Shown: positions 5,083 to 43,024, counted from the first letter of the stretch. The stretch is DNA of 64,000 bases from an uncultured Thermoplasmata archaeon (GCA_963838955.1 CAWISZ010000002.1:121991-185990); one strand, 5' to 3'. The notes: a model not told the origin generated them from the letters alone. Program-made: numbers and translations.

Positions 5083-5445
5083 TCGCCAACGGCGACTTCG
5101 ATTCGGGCTTAACCGTTAGTCCGGAGCATCCCGATTCGTCGGGCCCTGACCGTTAGCATCATGCCAATGTACGCGCGCGGGAGCCGATTCAGGCACCTTT
5201 CCATAGACGTCCCCAGTGCTCGACCCCGAGGACCCCACCTACGCCGTAGCCAACGCATCGCGGCCGGCGTTTCTCATCATGACGCTCCCGGAGCCGATCG
5301 ACTGGACCGTCCCCCGAAAGTTAACAACTTGACTCGGTGGTGAACAGAGCAATCCCTCCCGACCAGCCCGTCGACTGTTCCGGTCGTCGGCAGCTAAGCG
5401 ATCATGAGACGGTAGGCACCCGCCTGCATCGACACCGGCGTCGAT

Positions 5446-5898
5446 TCATCCAGAGCCCACGTCAGCGTCATCCCAGGTTGATTCTTCGGCTTCCTCCTTC
5501 ACCCGCTCGACCCAGACCACTACCCCGGGCGTGCCGTACTCCTTCTCGGCCTCGAGTCGCACCACCTGCGCGTCGTCTCTCCACACGATCCCCGTGAGAC
5601 TGTCGAGGCAGGCCCGAACGAGCTTGTCGAGATCCGGCCGGCGCTCCGGCCACGTCCGTAGCTTCTTCGGCGCGCTCTTCGGCTTCGGCACGTAGAACAT
5701 CAGCGTCACCGCCAGCGGGCCTTCCCACAAGCTGCTCGGAGCGTGCTGCTGGGCGACGTCGGAAACGAGGCGTCGCCACGCAGCCAAGCCTCGGTTCGCG
5801 GTCGTAATGTGGACCTTCCCGCCCACGACGAACCCACGCGCACTTCCTTGGGGTGCCGGAACTCCTCGGACCTCGAAGGAGATCATCTCCGCGCTCAT
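5446..5898 (-). CDS. rusA: RusA-like Holliday junction resolvase
   Basis: RRPDLDKLVRACLDSLTGIVWRDDAQVV aligns with the E. coli RusA core [29 protein letters not shown]. Start overlaps the stop of the upstream gene (ATGA). Confidence 0.8.
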   Translation of the reverse strand: MSAEMISFEVRGVPAPQGSARGFVVGGKVHITTANRGLAAWRRLVSDVAQQHAPSSLWEGPLAVTLMFYVPKPKSAPKKLRTWPERRPDLDKLVRACLDSLTGIVWRDDAQVVRLEAEKEYGTPGVVVWVERVKEEAEESTWDDADVGSG

Positions 5899-15424: not shown

Positions 15425-15780
15425 GCGGCCTGTGTCGGTCGTTTGGGTCGTCGCCGGTAAGCTCCTTCTTCAATTCTCCCTGAGCCCGGAGTGGGGGAAT
15501 CGGAACCATTTCCCCCGTTGAAAACGCACCCGTTACTAGGGTGTTGTCGACACTGGCCTGATCGGGCGCGACCGCGACCTGGATAGAGGGCGCGCGGCGT
15601 CGATGACAGACAGAGAGTATCCTGCCCGTCACCTAGGTGGAAAGACTGAGCACCCTAGACCCGTTGGAGTGTCCCGGATGTCGACGACTCGTTTTGCCCA
15701 GTTTGCTAGCGCCGGAGAGTCAATCGTAGCCCCGAGGAAGGCTTAACCTCGAGGCATGATACCAATTCGCGCGGGAACCC

Positions 15781-16839
15781 ATGGCCGTCAATCCAGACAA
15801 GTTGAACCAGTTTATCGGCAGGTTTCTAGGCGATGTCGGTGCCGCGATCCACGGACCAGCCATTTTGATCGGAGAACAGCTCGGTCTCTACAAAGCCCTC
15901 GCCGCTGACGGACCACTGAACTCGGAAGGACTCGCAGAAAAGACCGGCATACCGGAACGCTACGCACGCGAGTGGCTCGCGGGGCAGGCGGCTTCAGGGT
16001 ACGTGGAGTACGACGCGGGTAGCGAACGTTATTGGATGACGCCCGAACAGGCGTTTGCCTTGACGGTCGAGGATAACCCGGTCTACATCCCGGGGGTCTA
16101 CTATACCATCGCGTCGGTCTACAAGGACCAACGGAAAATCGCCGAAGCGATCAAGTCCGGAAAAGGGTTCGGCTGGCACGAACACCACAACGACCTCTTC
16201 ATCGGCACAAAGAAGTTCTTTCGACCAGGCTATCTCGCAAACCTCGTCAGCTCCTGGCTCCCCAGTCTCGAGGGGGTCGTGCCGAAGCTCGACGCCGGTG
16301 CTCGGGTCGCCGACATCGGCTGCGGTCTCGGGGCGTCTACCATCATCATGGCCAAGGCGTTTCCAAAGTCCAGATTCATTGGCTTCGACTACCACCTGGA
16401 GTCGATCGAATGGGCGCAGAACGACGCTGTGACAGCGGGTGTGACCCAAAACACCGACTTTGAGGTTGCAACCGCGAAGGAGTTCCGGGGGAAGGACTAC
16501 GATCTCGTCTGCTTCTTCGACTGCTTGCACGACATGGGCGACCCGGTCGGTGCGGCGCGGCACACCCTCAAGACTCTGAAGCCAGATGGTACTCTGATGG
16601 CCGTCGAGCCGTTTGCACATGACCAGGTCGAGCAGAATATGACTGCGGTAGGCCGGATCTTTTACAATGCTTCCCTGTTAGTGTGCGTCCCGGCTTCCCT
16701 TTCTCAGGAGGTCGGGAAGGGTTTGGGGGCTCAGGCGAGCGATGCGAGCTTGAACGGAGTGTTCCGCGACGCGGGGTTTACTCGGGTCCGGAAAGCGATC
16801 GAGACGCCGTTCAACCGGGTGTTCGAAGCCCGCCCCTGA
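15781..16839 (+). CDS. class I SAM-dependent methyltransferase with N-terminal winged-helix/dimerisation domain
   Basis: Motif I ADIGCGLGAS; acidic motif FFDCLHDMGDP; 352 aa. Confidence 0.85.
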   Translation: MAVNPDKLNQFIGRFLGDVGAAIHGPAILIGEQLGLYKALAADGPLNSEGLAEKTGIPERYAREWLAGQAASGYVEYDAGSERYWMTPEQAFALTVEDNPVYIPGVYYTIASVYKDQRKIAEAIKSGKGFGWHEHHNDLFIGTKKFFRPGYLANLVSSWLPSLEGVVPKLDAGARVADIGCGLGASTIIMAKAFPKSRFIGFDYHLESIEWAQNDAVTAGVTQNTDFEVATAKEFRGKDYDLVCFFDCLHDMGDPVGAARHTLKTLKPDGTLMAVEPFAHDQVEQNMTAVGRIFYNASLLVCVPASLSQEVGKGLGAQASDASLNGVFRDAGFTRVRKAIETPFNRVFEARP

Positions 16840-16999
16840 ACCCACCCGATCCTAGGGATCGCCTCGATCACGAACGCTGACGATAGCCGGTAAGCCCAAT
16901 TCGCAAACCGACGCGTTTCCCGTGCTCGAAACGGACCGAGACTGTGTGAAAACTCGTGCGTAGGTTTATCCGGTAGTACTACTCTGTCAGAGCCATATG

Positions 17000-18780
17000 G
17001 CTCGAACTGTCCATCTCGAAGCGACGAACAAGCTGACCATGGAGAACATCGTCGGGTTCATCCGTCGACCTGTGGTTCCTCACGGAACTGGAGCGAAGGT
17101 CACCTGTCCGAGGGCGTTCCTGGGGAAGACCGTCTATCTGGTGATCACCGACGAGGATTGGCCCGAGGATCGACCTCGCCGAGGGAGGCGACCATGAGCG
17201 GCTACGTTCGAGCCGTTCACCGTCACCAGCAGATTCTGATGCCCGACCTTCTGGACGACTACGTGACGGAGGAGAACCCGGTGCGGTTCCTCGATGTGTT
17301 CGTCGACGGCTTGGACTTGAGCGAGCTCGGGATCACTCACGCCGAACCGAACGAGACGGGACGACCACCGTATGATCCCGCGGCTCTGCTGAAGCTCTAC
17401 CTCTATGGCTACCTCCACGGGGTGCGTTCCAGTCGGAAGCTGGAACAGGAGTGCCATCGCAACCTGGAGGTGATGTGGCTCCTGCGCAAGCTCACCCCGG
17501 ACTTCAAGACGATTGCCGACTTCCGCAAGGACAATGTCGATCGCTTCCGACCCTTGTTCCAGCGGCTCGTGGCTCTCGGCCGAGAACTCCGCCTGCTGGA
17601 GGGAGATTTGGTGGCGATCGACGGGAGTAAGTTCCGAGCGGTGAACGCGAAGGACCGCAACTTCAATCGTGCGAAGCTCGCCGACCGGACGAAGGCGATC
17701 GAGAAGAGCATCGATCGCTACCTGCGTGAGCTGGATGAGAATGACGCGAAGGAATCGGAGAATCCCGGTCTTCCGTTGCGCGTCCCGAATCTCCAGGAGA
17801 AGATCGAGCGGCTGAAGGAACGACAGCGCCGCTATCGAGGTCTGCTCGAGCAGCTGGAGACGACCGGGGCTACCGAGATCTCCCTCACCGACCCGGACAG
17901 TCGCATGATGAAAGGGAACCATGACCGGATGGAGGTCAGCTACAACGGGCAGATCGCCGTCGAGGCCGACAGCAAGCTCATTGTCGCCTACGATGTCGAC
18001 AACAAGGCGTCCGACCACCACCAGCTCGCCTCGATGGCGGAGCAGGCTCAGGCAGCTCTACGACGGTCGTCTCTACGGGCTGTCGCGGACCGCGGATACT
18101 ACGATGGCGAGCAGGTCCGTCGATGCATCGCGCGGGACATCACGCCGTACGTTCCGGAGCCCGAGAAGGGGCGAGGGGCAGCCGAACGGACCGCCATGGC
18201 TCCGGAATTCCAGCGAGACCGGTTCGTCTACGATCCCACGACCGACACGGTTCGATGCCCCGCCGGAGCTCGGTTGACCTTCCGTGGGGAGCGTCGGACC
18301 CATTGGCACCAGCGCCCGGGGGGAATTCTCGAGCGCGAATATCGGACGGACCAGTGTCCTTCCTGTCCGCACTTCATGACACGGTGCACCCACAATCCGA
18401 TGGGACGACGGTTCCATCGACGAGAGAACGATGAGCATCTGGAGGCGATGCGGAGGCGAGTGCGAACCGACGAGGGAGAGCGAATCCTCGCCGAGCGCCA
18501 ATCGGTCGTGGAACACCCGTTCGGCACGATCAAACGAGCGTTCAACCAAGGCTACCTGTTGTTGAAAGGGCTTCGGAAGGTGATGGGGGAAATGGGGCTC
18601 ACGATGATCGCGTATGACCTGAGACGGTTGCTGAGCCTGGTCGGAACCCGAGCTCTGGTGGCCCACCTATCGAGCGAACGAAGAGCTCGAGGGGCTGCGG
18701 CCTGAACTCCCCTCTTCCCCGAATTCGAACGGACAAAGGAGTGGAGGGATCTCTCGAACCGGCCGACGTTTTTACACAGT
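17000..18780 (+). mobile_element. IS1182 family insertion sequence (boundaries approximate, inverted repeats not resolved)
   Basis: Single long transposase ORF; ends inferred only from coding extent. Confidence 0.4.
17158..18705 (+). CDS. IS1182 family transposase
   Basis: 515 aa; N-terminal LLKLYLYGYLHGVRSSRKLE and C-terminal DDE region typical of IS1182; alternative start at 17194. Confidence 0.9.
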   Translation: MARGSTSPREATMSGYVRAVHRHQQILMPDLLDDYVTEENPVRFLDVFVDGLDLSELGITHAEPNETGRPPYDPAALLKLYLYGYLHGVRSSRKLEQECHRNLEVMWLLRKLTPDFKTIADFRKDNVDRFRPLFQRLVALGRELRLLEGDLVAIDGSKFRAVNAKDRNFNRAKLADRTKAIEKSIDRYLRELDENDAKESENPGLPLRVPNLQEKIERLKERQRRYRGLLEQLETTGATEISLTDPDSRMMKGNHDRMEVSYNGQIAVEADSKLIVAYDVDNKASDHHQLASMAEQAQAALRRSSLRAVADRGYYDGEQVRRCIARDITPYVPEPEKGRGAAERTAMAPEFQRDRFVYDPTTDTVRCPAGARLTFRGERRTHWHQRPGGILEREYRTDQCPSCPHFMTRCTHNPMGRRFHRRENDEHLEAMRRRVRTDEGERILAERQSVVEHPFGTIKRAFNQGYLLLKGLRKVMGEMGLTMIAYDLRRLLSLVGTRALVAHLSSERRARGAAA

Positions 18781-38274: not shown

Positions 38275-40269
38275 ATGGGGGCTTCCGACACTCTCCGTGC
38301 GCTGGTCGATACGCTCTTGCCGGCGAGCCCGGCGGACGAGCAAGGGCCCGGATATCCCGCTGCGACTTCGGTCGGGCTGGATCGGGATATCGCCGAGATC
38401 GTGACCGATCTCTCTAAGGGAGAACAGGCCGATTTCGCGAGACTCCTGTCGGCGCTCGATTCTCGCTTCGCGAACCTCGTGCTCACCGGCCGCCCCGTGC
38501 AGCTCCATCGCCTGGACGCTGCCGCTCGAGAGCGCTACCTCCTCGGTTGGGCGACCAGTCGACTCGCGGTGAAACGCAAGGGGTTCCACGCGATGAAACG
38601 GCTCGCCGCCGGTCAGTACTTCTCCGGGCCGCTCGCGGGTACGCCGAACCCGCTCTGGAACCGGATTCACTACGGCCCGCCGAGCGTCCCGTCGGGCCTT
38701 CCCGATCCGCTCGACGGTCTCTCCCCGGTGCGCCCGGACCGCGATGTCGAGGAAGAGGTCGACGCCTGCGTCATCGGAAGCGGGGCGGGGGGCGGTGTGA
38801 TCGCCGAGCGGCTCGTTCGGGCGGGGTACTCGACCGTCGTGCTCGAAGCGGGTGCCTGGTTCACCCATCGATCGTACCCCCGAGTGGAGCGGGATGCACA
38901 GCGCCAGCTCTTCGCGGGCGGAGGACTGCTCACGACCCGGAACGGGGCGATCGGCATTCTCGCCGGGGCGACGGTTGGTGGGGGGACCGCGATCAACTGG
39001 ATGACGTGCCTATCGCCTCGCCCCGAGGCCCGCGCGGAGTGGGCACGGGACGGAGGGATGGAAGGGATCGATGGGGCCGATTTCGATCGCCACCTCCAAG
39101 CGGTCGCCGAGCGGCTCCATGTCTCGACGGCGGAAAGCCAGATCAACGCCAACAACGACTCCCTCCGCCGGGGTTGCATCGCGCTCGGCTTCCGTCAAGG
39201 CATCGATTGGGATGTGATTCCGCGCAACGCGGTCGGTTGCCAAGAGCGCTGCGGGTTCTGTAGTTTCGGCTGTCCCTACGCCGCCCGGCAATCGGGGCCG
39301 GTGACCTTCCTTCTGGACGCGCTCCGAGGGGGCGCGCGATTGTATTCGTCGACTCGGGCGGACTTCGTCGAGGTGGAGCAGGGGCGGGTGACCGGGGTCC
39401 GCGCGACCTTCCGGGAGGGATCGCTCACTCGCAACGTTCACGTCCGCGCACGGACGACGGTCGTGGCAGCCGGTGCGCTGCAGACCCCCGCTCTACTCCT
39501 ACGCTCGGGCATCCGCCACGCCGGCGTGGGGGCAGGTCTCCGGCTCGATCCGACCACAGCCCTGGCCGGGGAGTTCCCAGCGCCGGTTCGGACCTGGGTC
39601 GGGCCCCCTCAAACGATCGGCGTCTACCGATTCCAGACGTGCGATGCGGGCGCGCACGGACCGTGGATGGAGGTCGCCCCGGCGCATCCCGGCCTTTCCG
39701 CGATCGCCCTCCCGTGGGCTGGGGCGCGCGACTTCCATCGCCTCCTGGGGCGGAGCGAGTACGTCGCCTCCCCCATCGTGCTCGTCCGCGACGTCGGTGA
39801 GGGTCGTGTCACCATCGACACCGAGGGTCGACCTCGGTTCGATTACGTTCTCACCCCGCGGGATCGGCAGAATCTTCTGAGAGGCATGGTCGAGACCGCT
39901 CGACTCCTGCATGCGGGGGGCGCCACCCGACTGCTCTCGCTTCAGACCTCCTATGCGGAGGTGGGCGATGGGAGGCGACCGCTCTCGGAAGGGGAGCTGG
40001 ATCGGTTCATCGCCCAGGTGGAGCACGTCGGTGTTCGGGACAATGCGATCGCGCTCTTCTCGGCGCACCCGATCGGAAGCGCGCGTGCCGGGCGCGACCC
40101 CCGCACGTCCGCAACGCGACCATCCGGGGAAGTCCACGGGGTCGAAGGCCTGTGGATCGGAGATGGGAGCCTCCTGCCGTCGGCCCCGGGAGCCAACCCG
40201 ATGATGTCGATCCTCGCGGTCGCGCAGCGCACCGCCGACCACCTATTGGCGAAGCTCCGTGCGATCTGA
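38275..40269 (+). CDS. GMC family FAD-dependent oxidoreductase with about 140-aa N-terminal extension
   Basis: Rossmann motif CVIGSGAGGGVIAERL; 664 aa. Confidence 0.9.
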   Translation: MGASDTLRALVDTLLPASPADEQGPGYPAATSVGLDRDIAEIVTDLSKGEQADFARLLSALDSRFANLVLTGRPVQLHRLDAAARERYLLGWATSRLAVKRKGFHAMKRLAAGQYFSGPLAGTPNPLWNRIHYGPPSVPSGLPDPLDGLSPVRPDRDVEEEVDACVIGSGAGGGVIAERLVRAGYSTVVLEAGAWFTHRSYPRVERDAQRQLFAGGGLLTTRNGAIGILAGATVGGGTAINWMTCLSPRPEARAEWARDGGMEGIDGADFDRHLQAVAERLHVSTAESQINANNDSLRRGCIALGFRQGIDWDVIPRNAVGCQERCGFCSFGCPYAARQSGPVTFLLDALRGGARLYSSTRADFVEVEQGRVTGVRATFREGSLTRNVHVRARTTVVAAGALQTPALLLRSGIRHAGVGAGLRLDPTTALAGEFPAPVRTWVGPPQTIGVYRFQTCDAGAHGPWMEVAPAHPGLSAIALPWAGARDFHRLLGRSEYVASPIVLVRDVGEGRVTIDTEGRPRFDYVLTPRDRQNLLRGMVETARLLHAGGATRLLSLQTSYAEVGDGRRPLSEGELDRFIAQVEHVGVRDNAIALFSAHPIGSARAGRDPRTSATRPSGEVHGVEGLWIGDGSLLPSAPGANPMMSILAVAQRTADHLLAKLRAI

Positions 40270-40623
40270 ACCACCCGAGGTGGATCCTCCGGGCGGCGGG
40301 AGCTTTTCGAAGCGCAGGAGGCCGCCTTCGGGGTTGAACGTCACGCGCGCTCGAAACGTCTCGGCGCCCGCCTGGGCGACGCACGTTCGGCCTCGTCGAT
40401 CGCCGGCGATCTCGAGGGCCTCGATGAGGGACCAGCCCGTTTCCTGCTTGATCCGTTCCACCAACTGGTGGAACTGGGTGGCGCAGATCGCACAGCAGAA
40501 GAACATTCGCTCTCCGTCGACCTCTTCCCAGAGGTTCCCCCACGTCGAGTCACAGATGGCGCAGCCGGAATAGTTACGCTTCAAACTGGCCTGCCCTCTC
40601 GAGCCGGGCGATGAGGTAGTCAT
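40243..40623 (-). CDS. Ta0938-like zinc-binding protein (CxxC...CCxxC)
   Basis: GCAICDS...FFCCAICA; 126 aa; overlaps the 3-prime end of the upstream gene by about 50 nt. Confidence 0.5.
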   Translation of the reverse strand: MTTSSPGSRGQASLKRNYSGCAICDSTWGNLWEEVDGERMFFCCAICATQFHQLVERIKQETGWSLIEALEIAGDRRGRTCVAQAGAETFRARVTFNPEGGLLRFEKLPPPGGSTSGGSDRTELRQ

Positions 40624-41488
40624 CGAACAGGTCGATCGATCGTAGGAACGTGGACTGCACGGCCTCGCGGAGCCCGGCTCCGTCCTCGAACTCGGTCACC
40701 AGGTCCAACGCCTCGTCCGAATGCTCTACGTCGGCTTCGTACCCCTCCCGGAGGAAGTCCCTCGCGGCGTTTGTGATCTCCGTCCCCTCGAGGATGGACG
40801 GGTCGAAGTATCGCATCACGGCCCCGTCGTTCACTAGATTGCGGTTCGCAATGAGTTCCAGGCTGTGCATCGCGGCGACCACCGATAGCCAGTGCTCGCG
40901 GGAGGCGATCTCGTTCCACGCTTCGATCGCATGACGCGTCGCCGGTAGAGGAGGAGTTACGAGCACCTGCGCCCGGTCGACACCGAGGCTCTCCCCCATC
41001 CGGAGCAGCAGCTCGTAGTGCGATACGCGCTCCAAGCCGAACCCACCGAACTCCGTGTTGAGGTTGTCGAGCTCATAGAGGACGACCTTCGACTGATCGG
41101 TGCGTGCCATGATGTAGGAGCAGGAGCGAACCCATTGACGAAGGAAATGTTGATGCTCGATCACATACCCGAGCAGAGTGGCCCGCGACGGGTGTTGGAG
41201 CGCGACGACGAAGGAGTGGGGGTTCTTTCCGTAGAACTTCGCAATGAACCTTGACTTGATCCATCCCTTGATCCCGCCCGGGCCCACCTCGTAGAGCTCC
41301 TGCAGACCCGGAACCAGCTCGGCCGCTTCGGACTTCCGCCGAGTCAGGTTCTGGTTCAGCCATCGAACGTGGTTCGTGTTGCTTTCCTCCGCCTGGTCGA
41401 CCAGGTGGCGGGCGAGGGCCGGAAGGTCATCGTCGCCGAGGCCGAGGAGGCATGCCGGACACTTGGTCACGGATCCCTTCCCCTTCAA
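40574..41488 (-). CDS. heme-oxygenase-like di-iron enzyme family (PqqC/CADD/TenA fold) with N-terminal CPAC-containing extension
   Basis: ExxH-type motifs YVIEHQHF, SHYELLLRMGE, AMHSLELIA; 304 aa. Confidence 0.65.
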   Translation of the reverse strand: MKGKGSVTKCPACLLGLGDDDLPALARHLVDQAEESNTNHVRWLNQNLTRRKSEAAELVPGLQELYEVGPGGIKGWIKSRFIAKFYGKNPHSFVVALQHPSRATLLGYVIEHQHFLRQWVRSCSYIMARTDQSKVVLYELDNLNTEFGGFGLERVSHYELLLRMGESLGVDRAQVLVTPPLPATRHAIEAWNEIASREHWLSVVAAMHSLELIANRNLVNDGAVMRYFDPSILEGTEITNAARDFLREGYEADVEHSDEALDLVTEFEDGAGLREAVQSTFLRSIDLFDDYLIARLERAGQFEA

Positions 41489-41709
41489 AGCGGGAACGAG
41501 TTCGGCAGACGACTCCGGAGTGCCTGATATTCCGGGTCGCCGTGATGCATGTTCCGCAGTCGGTTCAGGGTCGCCTTGACTTCGTCGGTCTCCCGGTGTC
41601 GGGAGTTGGCGACCATCCGAACGGTCCCCTCAAAATCCTCCCCGCACGCCTCGTAGCAGTTCCCCATTCCGGTGAGTAGCTCGCGGTCCCGGGGATTCAC
41701 GATCTCCAA
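41485..41709 (-). CDS. small hypothetical protein (74 aa)
   Basis: Start of the downstream heme-oxygenase-like gene overlaps its stop (ATGA); contains CYEACGEDFEG. Confidence 0.45.
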   Translation of the reverse strand: MEIVNPRDRELLTGMGNCYEACGEDFEGTVRMVANSRHRETDEVKATLNRLRNMHHGDPEYQALRSRLPNSFPL

Positions 41710-41823
41710 ATCTCGGCAACTCCCTTAAGGTTTCAGCCAGGGGCGGATCTCCCACCGGCGATGGTCAACCGCGGTTGACTTATGGCTTAAGGAGGGGAAG
41801 ACCCCCCGGATTCGTCGTAGGCC

Positions 41824-42910
41824 ATGCTCGGAGCCGCTGACGCGAACTCGAGGAGTAGCCGCGCCTCCCTCGCTATCGAGGCGCTGCGCGTTGGGGTCGG
41901 TGTCGTCTGGGCGCTGAACTTCATCTTCATCGTCGCGCCGGCGAACGATTTCTTCGGCAATTTCGGAGCGGTCGTGCTCTCGCTCGGTCCGACCTCGCTC
42001 GGCGGCTCGGGGCTGGAGACGTTCGTAGCGGCGAACGCTGCGATCTTTTCCTGGATGGTCGCGCTCGTCACGGGGTACCTCGCGGTTGCATTCATCCTCG
42101 GTCTGACGACACGCTGGGCGTGCATCATCGGAGGGATCTTCTCCGCCGTGCTTCTCGGTGCTCAGATCGGGACCATCTACGTGTTCCCGGGCGGGACCGA
42201 CGTCGGGGAGCACCCCCTGTACTTGGTGATCTACGTCGCCCTGGTGCTCGGAGGCGCGGGCGCGGCGTACTCCTTGGACCACCGGATCGCCGAGGCATGG
42301 GCACGACGCCGCGCCTACCGGGCGACGTTGGGTGAGGCGGCGCCTCGGGGTGTGTGGGCGGCCGGCTCTACCTCGCGGATCGCCCTTACCTACTTCATCG
42401 CGGGAACCGTCATTTCCTTCGGAATGGGCATGGGGCTCATGATCGCCATCCCGGCGAGCCCCACTCCGGGCCCAACGCCGATCCAGTACTCGGTACGAGA
42501 ATCTGACGATCTCGATCAATGCGACCAACGGCTGGCCAATATACTCGCCCGCCAATCTCACGGTGAGTACGGGACATGTCATCTTCACGATTACCGATTT
42601 CGACTCTCCGGTGGCTTGGTCGCCGTGTCCGTGCGTCGTGGCGGGCACAGACGCCGGCGTCGAATTAATCAATGGAACTCCGTATCATGTCGTTCCGTCG
42701 ACCAACGTCGCCCATACGTTCAACATCCCGGCCCTGGGCCTCGACATCTACACCCCGGGGTTCAGCGTCGTTCAGTTCACCGTCGATCTCATCAACCCGG
42801 GATCCTTCGATTGGTTCTGTACCGCACCCTGCGGAGCCGGAGCCAACCCCTATTCTACCCCGCCGATGGGGACCCCCGGTTTCATGACGGGGACGATGAT
42901 CATCACCTAA
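41824..42910 (+). pseudogene. membrane-anchored cupredoxin-like protein, apparent +1 frameshift near 42470
   Basis: About 6-TM N-domain in the frame of 41824, then cupredoxin-like domain in the frame of 42563 with VAHTFNIP, FCTAPCG and Met-rich tail, resembling the CoxII CuA region. Three N-x-S/T sequons in the linker. Confidence 0.55.
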
Positions 42911-43024
42911 CGGACTTGCGTCCGCTCGGAGACCGGACCAGAGATGTGCGATGCGTCCCGGGGTCGTTGTTAATGTCGTCGCGGTCCTCCACGGGCCTGC
43001 CGGCAGGAGGAGATCGGGATCTCG

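Follow-up and report, generated by a model that had tools for sequence, protein, structure and literature searches.

An uncultured Thermoplasmata archaeon carries, on the minus strand of the 64,000-nt stretch of DNA analysed here (GCA_963838955.1, CAWISZ010000002.1:121991-185990; hereafter the window), three adjacent genes that remain together and intact across at least five archaeal lineages. They encode a small acidic four-helix protein (gene 1), a heme-oxygenase-like enzyme (gene 2) and a protein of the Ta0938 family (gene 3). The reading we favour, and to which we give roughly an even chance of being right, is that the trio forms a three-subunit, O2-dependent heme-oxygenase-like dimetal oxidase (HDO), in which two small cysteine-containing partners assist the enzyme and the substrate is a small molecule.

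The co-inheritance of the trio was assessed from relatives of the enzyme scanned in one genome per species, which gave 130 matches; 80 loci were retrieved for the comparison of neighbourhoods. The three genes are collinear and on the same strand in 78 of these loci, and in the remaining two the contig is cut off before it reaches the small gene. Taken separately, the Ta0938-like gene lies downstream of the enzyme gene in every locus, and the small gene lies immediately upstream of it in 78. The loci come from Thermoplasmata, Bathyarchaeia, Nitrososphaerales, Heimdall- and Thorarchaeota, and from one metagenome-assembled genome (MAG) labelled as Methanomassiliicoccales. Identity to the proteins of the window ranges from 52% to 83% for the enzyme, from 44% to 75% for the small protein and from 38% to 78% for the Ta0938-like protein, and these identities co-vary (r = 0.72-0.78; r = 0.76 between the small protein and the enzyme). 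Invariant cysteines are found in all three proteins. The co-occurrence of the three genes is far beyond chance. A previous sequence-only reading of this DNA had described them as a tightly coupled, obligate unit, and in the sense of co-inheritance this is borne out by the collinear loci, the short spacer and the conserved overlap described below: the three genes do co-occur in other archaeal genomes. Neither small protein was found in a fusion. A profile search among 1.8 billion representative proteins returned 52 representative clusters of the small protein, all of them stand-alone, and all matches of the Ta0938-like protein were single-domain proteins of about 100 aa.

Two sets of loci are worth describing individually. 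The Thermoplasmata MAG CAVSTD01 has two whole copies of the trio on different contigs (L021 and L024), so that duplication of the entire module is possible. The upstream sequence of a locus attributed to a bacterium (L038, 'MAG: bacterium Centralia_MAG_577') almost equals those of the Bathyarchaeota/archaeon loci L040 and L042. The label of L038 is probably a binning or taxonomy error, in which case the trio is archaeal-only among the 80 loci.

The organisation of the genes is equally conserved. The ORF (open reading frame) listing has three co-directional minus-strand ORFs between 40243 and 41709, where the sequence-only reading had placed them. The lengths given in that reading (74, 304 and 126 aa) are those of maximal ORFs and are corrected here to 71, 298 and 113 aa (Table 1). 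The 74- and 304-aa ORFs both begin at TTG codons. We place the start of gene 1 at the GTG at 41700 because similarity in every relative begins at residue 4 of the 74-aa ORF, and databases also call a protein of 71 aa. The start of the enzyme is placed at the GTG at 41470 because about 110 of the 120 listed database clusters are 298 aa long. With these starts, genes 1 and 2 are separated by 14 nt instead of being joined by an ATGA overlap, as had been proposed (even the junction of the long ORFs reads TTGA). The corresponding spacers in relatives measure 5-30 nt and contain GGAGG or GGGGG runs. Genes 2 and 3 overlap, and they do so by 11 nt (TTGAAGCGTAA, from the TTG at 40584 to the stop codon of the enzyme) instead of the previously suggested 50 nt or so. 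Across relatives the overlap is 11-14 nt and its start codon is conserved: in about 75 of the 80 loci the Ta0938-like protein starts exactly seven codons before its first Cys, frequently at the sole candidate start. This start is a TTG in most loci, where it is embedded in the codons of the conserved C-terminal ...QFE of the enzyme (cagTTTGAAgcgTAA; window 40574-40584), and an ATG in lineages with a different enzyme C-terminus. Because it lies inside these codons, the start codon and the enzyme C-terminus constrain each other.

Upstream of gene 1 there is a promoter-like element with a TATA-like CTTAAGG (Table 1). Most Thermoplasmata relatives have an element of the form GAAyCCTTA[AT]GG at the same distance from gene 1, and other lineages have A/T-rich TATA-like boxes at the corresponding position. 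The TATA-like element was found upstream of gene 1 only, not of genes 2 and 3. Given the known position of archaeal TATA boxes, it is a predicted promoter, and the trio is probably expressed as one short, leaderless or near-leaderless transcript. The divergent intergenic region between gene 1 and the adjoining membrane-protein gene also contains a perfect 16-bp palindrome, GTCAACCGCGGTTGAC, at 41764-41779. No such palindrome precedes the trio in 78 related loci, and it is probably either specific to this genome or associated with the membrane-protein gene. We also observed that automatic gene callers often shorten the small genes of the trio (database calls P0241; P0368-P0411), e.g., to an 87-aa Ta0938-like protein that lacks the first CxxC or to 43- and 60-aa versions of the 71-aa protein that begin at internal Met codons.

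The enzyme combines two domains. Its heme-oxygenase-like domain matches PF03070 (TENA_THI-4; E = 1.3e-32, 113.7 bits against a cut-off of 22), an umbrella family (TENA/THI-4/PQQC) that covers PqqC too, and PF14518 ('iron-containing redox enzyme'; E = 8.5e-16). The N-terminus, in which an unusual CPAC extension had been noticed, is a zinc finger of PF16293 (zf-C2H2_9; E = 4e-9, 36.7 bits against a cut-off of 29), whose C4, C7, H22 and H34 are invariant or nearly so. The only other Cys of the enzyme, C117, is not conserved in 4LQX, the structure of its Sulfolobus solfataricus orthologue. The sequence-only reading had assigned the enzyme to the PqqC/CADD/TenA heme-oxygenase-like fold, and the enzyme does have the seven helices of this fold. 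Its structural neighbours (score and, where available, identity in brackets) are TenA proteins (19-21; 10-11%), CtCADD (20.9; 20%), HrmI (about 18), UndA (about 18) and PqqC (about 18; 19%). The best profile matches outside the family of the enzyme are the CADD-type 4-aminobenzoate synthases 1RCW, 8VA9 and 9PJ4 (E = 4e-4 to 7e-4), followed by PqqC (about 3e-3). The same family profile retrieved no TenA chain of the PDB at E<=10. By sequence, CADD, an Fe/Mn p-aminobenzoate synthase, is thus the nearest characterised relative of the enzyme. Because the curated models of both CADD (CADD/CT610; 1RCW, 8VA9; TIGR04305, 26.4 bits against a family cut-off of 200) and PqqC (1OTV; TIGR02111, 17.2 bits against 240) are missed by wide margins, we assign the enzyme family to a separate branch of the fold that belongs to neither. 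CADD also differs in being bacterial and in having neither zinc finger nor partner proteins.

Three specific identities of the enzyme were considered and set aside. On the level of sequence, thiaminase II of the TenA type is rejected by the low identity to TenA structures and by the lack of any match to a TenA NCBIfam model at E<=0.1. PqqC is rejected by its TIGR02111 score and by the lack of pqqA/B/D/E genes nearby, and the JGI name 'pyrroloquinoline-quinone synthase' is almost certainly an over-annotation. A self-sacrificial p-aminobenzoate synthase in the manner of CADD is rejected as the default, since the equivalents of its Tyr27 and Lys152 are missing.

The residues of the putative active site bear on whether a metal is bound at all. 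The metal ligands of CADD (E81, H88, E142, H174, D178 and H181) are conserved in the enzyme at five of six positions. E81, H88, E142, D178 and H181 align to the invariant residues E140 and H151 (helix alpha1), E205 (alpha2), and D247 and H250 (alpha3), and the motif EADVxH is common to the two proteins. Previously, ExxH pairs had been pointed out as consistent with the fold. The residues picked were only partly the right ones, and the alignment with CADD points to the five listed here as candidates. The carboxylate/His set on which the di-iron proposal depended is largely retained, H174 being the position that is lost. If, instead, the enzyme were metal free, like TenA or PqqC, it would be a vitamin-salvage hydrolase or a cofactor-less oxidase, the conserved Glu and His residues would bind the substrate, and adaptor functions or a structural use of Zn would account for the zinc finger and the two Cys proteins. 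We regard this as unlikely. TenA proteins are just 10-11% identical to the enzyme and were recovered neither by the family profile nor by NCBIfam models, and neither pqqA/B/D/E nor thiamine genes are found nearby. Furthermore, the five CADD ligand positions are invariably E/H/E/D/H in the enzyme family, whereas the metal-free PqqC has non-ligand residues at both positions that can be compared (His and Gly in place of the Glu/His pair E140 and H151).

Of the two small proteins, the product of gene 3 is the easier to classify. It matches PF11494 (Ta0938) with E = 2.5e-30 (105.1 bits against a cut-off of 27) and the Ta0938 structure itself (PDB 2FQH) with E = 2e-13, and is by these scores a clear member of the family, with which it shares the CxxC...CCxxC pattern; its C-terminal tail is some 15 aa longer than that of Ta0938. 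PF14518, PF11494 and GMC_oxred, the three families that the sequence-only reading had named for this region, were thus all matched (the last by a neighbouring gene; see below). Five cysteines (C8, C11, C30, C31 and C34, i.e., C8-x2-C11...C30-C31-x2-C34) are invariant in 35 Ta0938-like sequences. Read as C8-x2-C11-x18-C30-x3-C34, the motif is one residue short of the TRASH motif C-x2-C-x19-22-C-x3-C, and the TRASH model PF24273 matches the protein below threshold (21.3 bits against a cut-off of 27, E = 3e-4).

The 71-aa protein has no Pfam match above threshold. Its AlphaFold2 model has four helices and a high confidence (pLDDT, the predicted local distance difference test, of 96.3). The invariant residues of helix 1 are E7, L8, M12, C15 and C19, the two cysteines forming a CxxxC motif (C15-x3-C19), and further invariants are T26, M29, R34 and the C-terminal tail LRxRLPxxFP. 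The Cys and Met residues of helix 1 lie on its a/d-type face. The only near-invariant Tyr is Y58, which is Phe in some members. Sequence variation in the family, which is acidic (median pI of 5.3), is greatest in helix 3. The NCBI label of the protein is 'tetratricopeptide repeat protein'. The corresponding match to TPR_19 is below threshold (22.4 bits against a cut-off of 25), and for the consensus tetratricopeptide repeat (TPR) protein 7OBI a value of E = 0.003 is reached only by summing over repeats. A weak TPR likeness in a folded acidic protein suits a role in protein binding, and we read the protein as a putative protein-binding adaptor subunit with a two-Cys, possibly Cys2Met2, site.

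Other functions of the 71-aa protein fit less well. The sequence-only reading had raised the option of a precursor peptide, which is unlikely for a protein that is conserved over its full length, is modelled with such confidence and co-varies with the enzyme. A precursor of the type found in ribosomally synthesised and post-translationally modified peptides (RiPPs) is rejected on the first two of these grounds and because the 80 loci have no radical-SAM, RRE (RiPP recognition element) or protease neighbours. A helix-turn-helix regulator is likewise rejected: the protein is acidic, and its most variable helix is where the recognition helix would be.

The conserved cysteines of both small proteins could also be taken as signs of a module for the trafficking of metals, or for metal or redox sensing (Cu, Zn or Fe), in which the small proteins handle a thiophilic metal and the enzyme is a binding, storage or sensor component. 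The TRASH-like motif and the sub-threshold TRASH match are what one would expect from such a module, as are the two Cys and two Met that are invariant in the 71-aa protein (M12, C15, C19 and M29), the many invariant His and Glu residues of the enzyme, and the autonomy of the module, which has no pathway context. We nevertheless consider it distinctly improbable. No conserved neighbour is a transporter, P-type ATPase or metal regulator, the buried CADD-type site is conserved as deeply as one expects of an enzyme, which speaks for catalysis, and the Cys and Met residues on the a/d face of helix 1 could be mere core or interface residues.

The kinship with CADD brings up yet another possibility. 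CADD is self-sacrificial: its sacrificial residue is Tyr27, in the peptide HTFY27VK (PMC9522330). By analogy, the enzyme of the trio might modify or excise a residue of a partner, e.g., a Cys of the CxxxC motif, yielding a protein-derived cofactor or a small metabolite. Such a system would fit the co-translation of the partners at a fixed stoichiometry and the invariance of their cysteines. However, the residues used by CADD are not retained. Tyr27 corresponds by motif to V88 in HPFV88, which is Val in at least 90% of sequences (this mapping falls just outside the stretch aligned by the HMM, the hidden Markov model), and Lys152, the candidate amine donor of CADD, aligns to a variable position of the enzyme. 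Y58 of the 71-aa protein is replaced by Phe in some members, and conservation extends over all of the folded protein, which is not the pattern of leader/core precursors. We therefore give a sacrificial or protein-substrate system a slightly smaller chance still than the metal-handling module.

We return to the dimetal oxidase as the preferred reading of the trio. Under this reading, the enzyme would be an HDO-like oxidase, probably with an Fe/Fe or Mn/Fe centre, and a distant sister of CADD and PqqC that has an additional N-terminal zinc finger. The two Cys-containing partners, made from the same short transcript, would be stoichiometric subunits that load or stabilise the labile metal site of the HDO, or that feed electrons to the enzyme. 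The TPR-like 71-aa protein would be the adaptor, and the Ta0938/TRASH-like Cys4 protein may act as a rubredoxin- or chaperone-like module. The reaction would be the oxidation of a small molecule, most plausibly in the making or salvage of a cofactor building block, such a precursor being a plausible substrate because of the kinship with CADD and PqqC. In short, we infer metal binding, O2 chemistry, a physical complex and the roles of the partners from the observed gene anatomy, co-inheritance, fold and ligand conservation. Multicomponent diiron monooxygenases and the HDO MboA, with its redox partner MboB, provide an analogy, since they are dimetal O2 enzymes that need small accessory proteins (PMC13108848). 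In the multicomponent monooxygenases, however, the catalytic fold is a four-helix ferritin-like one, and the folds of the partners are unrelated to those of the trio.

Several observations weigh against the dimetal oxidase. HDOs follow a ligand rule of three His and three carboxylates on core helices alpha1-alpha3, and a variant that lost its alpha3 ligands is mononuclear (PMC13108848). In the enzyme of the trio, the first alpha3 His of CADD (H174) aligns to an invariant Gly (G243); the canonical set is thus not intact, and the nuclearity of the metal site is therefore uncertain. No HDO studied to date has required a protein effector (PMC13108848), so that the proposed roles of the partners have little precedent. 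The solved structure of Ta0938 is described by sources as zinc-binding, and the Cys sites may be purely structural. Finally, conserved neighbours gave no hint of a substrate in the 80 loci. As to the ligand set, the enzyme has an invariant H202 one helical turn before E205, and E242 adjoins G243; either H202 or E242 could be a substitute ligand that completes the site.

A more specific, and speculative, version of the dimetal oxidase can be formulated, to which we attach a low probability. The enzyme, as the archaeal protein closest to CADD, could represent an archaeal HDO lineage with rearranged ligands (Gly in place of the alpha3 His, and perhaps a His on alpha2 as its substitute) that provides a missing O2-dependent route to an aromatic cofactor unit, e.g., the p-aminobenzoate or arylamine of archaeal pterin cofactors, the self-chemistry of CADD being perhaps outsourced to, or assisted by, the partners. 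If this is true, the rearranged ligand set may have escaped censuses of HDOs that are based on ligand motifs.

The genes that surround the trio do not share its conservation. Over the 20.9 kb that were compared, the window, which comes from a MAG, and GenBank JBAPPW010000042.1 are 99.97% identical. The trio is convergent with a long gene of the GMC flavoprotein family, as the sequence-only reading had it and as Pfam and the coordinates confirm, and the 3' ends of this gene and of the Ta0938-like gene overlap by 27 nt. An N-terminal stretch of the GMC oxidoreductase resembles subunit 3 of gluconate 2-dehydrogenase (PF13618, E = 2.8e-5), which points to a fusion of the flavoprotein with a small subunit. 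On the other side, the membrane protein that had been called a cupredoxin is indeed present; its C-terminal match to a cupredoxin, a COX2 hit with E = 0.15, is weak and falls below threshold. The window has one G more than the GenBank record, at 42492, which splits the gene of this protein into two reading frames, and the listed ORFs of 514 and 115 aa are artefacts of this split. The additional G could be a difference of assembly or consensus, or else a genuine frameshift variant. A zinc-dependent alcohol dehydrogenase (Zn-ADH), also noted earlier, matches its family model (TIGR02822, 1e-107); the membrane-protein gene lies between it and the GMC gene. In an all-against-all clustering of 3,872 flanking ORFs from the 80 loci, no family other than those of the trio occurs in more than eight loci, and the cases found reflect lineage-limited synteny. 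Likewise, neither the GMC oxidoreductase, nor the membrane protein, nor the Zn-ADH is found beside the trio in any of the loci from other genomes. Since no flanking family is frequent and these neighbours are never retained, the module is autonomous and the redox neighbours are unrelated to it. The proposal that the trio, the GMC flavoprotein, the membrane cupredoxin-like protein and the Zn-ADH make up one oxidative pathway, which drew on their adjacency in this genome and on their being all redox-type proteins, is consequently very improbable, the more so as the neighbours are on the opposite strand and the cupredoxin assignment is below threshold. The earlier remark that the module could not be placed in any described pathway still stands, as we found none either. 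This genome also encodes, no more than 6 kb from the trio, a type-2 chorismate mutase, a protein of the peptidase-U32 family and a small Rieske protein (15774-17415 and 5115-5507 of locus L001, roughly 34-36 kb and 46 kb of the window). None of the three is a conserved neighbour in the other loci.

Table 1. Coordinates of the trio, of its predicted elements and domains, and of the adjoining genes in the window.
Feature	Position	Strand	Description
Gene 1	41485..41700	minus	71 aa, GTG start at 41700; small acidic four-helix protein
Gene 2	40574..41470	minus	298 aa, GTG start at 41470; heme-oxygenase-like enzyme
Gene 3	40243..40584	minus	113 aa, TTG start at 40584; Ta0938-family protein
Spacer between genes 1 and 2	41471..41484	minus	14 nt, purine-rich, GAAGGGGAAGGGATCC
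Shine-Dalgarno-like sequence	within 41471..41484	minus	GGGGAAGGGA, just 5' of the enzyme GTG start
Promoter-like element	41722..41736	minus	CTGAAACCTTAAGGG; TATA-like CTTAAGG centred about 26 nt before the gene 1 GTG
C2H2-type zinc finger of the enzyme	~41291-41470	minus	C4, C7, H22, H34
Heme-oxygenase-like seven-helix domain of the enzyme	~40601-41260	minus	
GMC oxidoreductase	38275-40269	plus	664 aa; GMC_oxred_N/C (Pfam)
Multi-pass membrane protein	41824-42910	plus	361 aa in the GenBank record; frameshifted in the window

Parts of this module have been visible for some time. The enzyme is the orthologue of SSO2700 of S. solfataricus (PDB 4LQX, 'TENA/THI-4 domain-containing protein'), and both SSO2700/4LQX and Ta0939 of Thermoplasma acidophilum are entries of structural or comparative genomics without function. 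Ta0938 and Ta0939 have consecutive locus tags in T. acidophilum, and a 2007 survey listed Ta0938 and the PQQC-like Ta0939 among the proteins common mainly to Thermoplasmata and Sulfolobus (PMC1852104). Hence two of the components were already known as structures without function, and their pairing could be seen in 2007. The Ta0938 family has no assigned function either, and its invariable pairing with the enzyme is documented here over 80 loci. We found no functional study of the module in the searchable literature, and no paper that mentions 4LQX, SSO2700 or their neighbours. Searches for Ta0938, 4LQX, SSO2700, the neighbouring locus tags, and HDOs together with archaea returned the phylogenomic table of 2007 only (PMC1852104). 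The 71-aa third partner is not described in that literature. Also apparently undescribed there are the strict organisation in three genes across archaeal phyla, the ligand set that resembles that of CADD but is rearranged, and the independence from any pathway.

These results have consequences for the annotation of the family and for what is expected of HDOs. As functional assignments, three names used in databases lack support: 'Pyrroloquinoline-quinone synthase', 'TenA' and 'tetratricopeptide repeat protein'. Only about a dozen HDOs have known functions, and they are described as bacterial enzymes of natural-product or cofactor metabolism (PMC13108848). The HDO-like enzyme described here spans Sulfolobus, Thermoplasma, soil Thermoplasmata, Bathyarchaeia, the ammonia-oxidising Nitrososphaerales and Asgard archaea, and is always paired with the same two small, putatively metal-binding proteins, one of which belongs to an unannotated family. 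Since two of the components have solved homologues (4LQX and 2FQH) and the enzyme is carried by a tractable host, Sulfolobus, the function of the module is directly testable. An HDO with two partners would be a new arrangement, and the broad distribution among Archaea points to a housekeeping role for the trio rather than to one in secondary metabolism.

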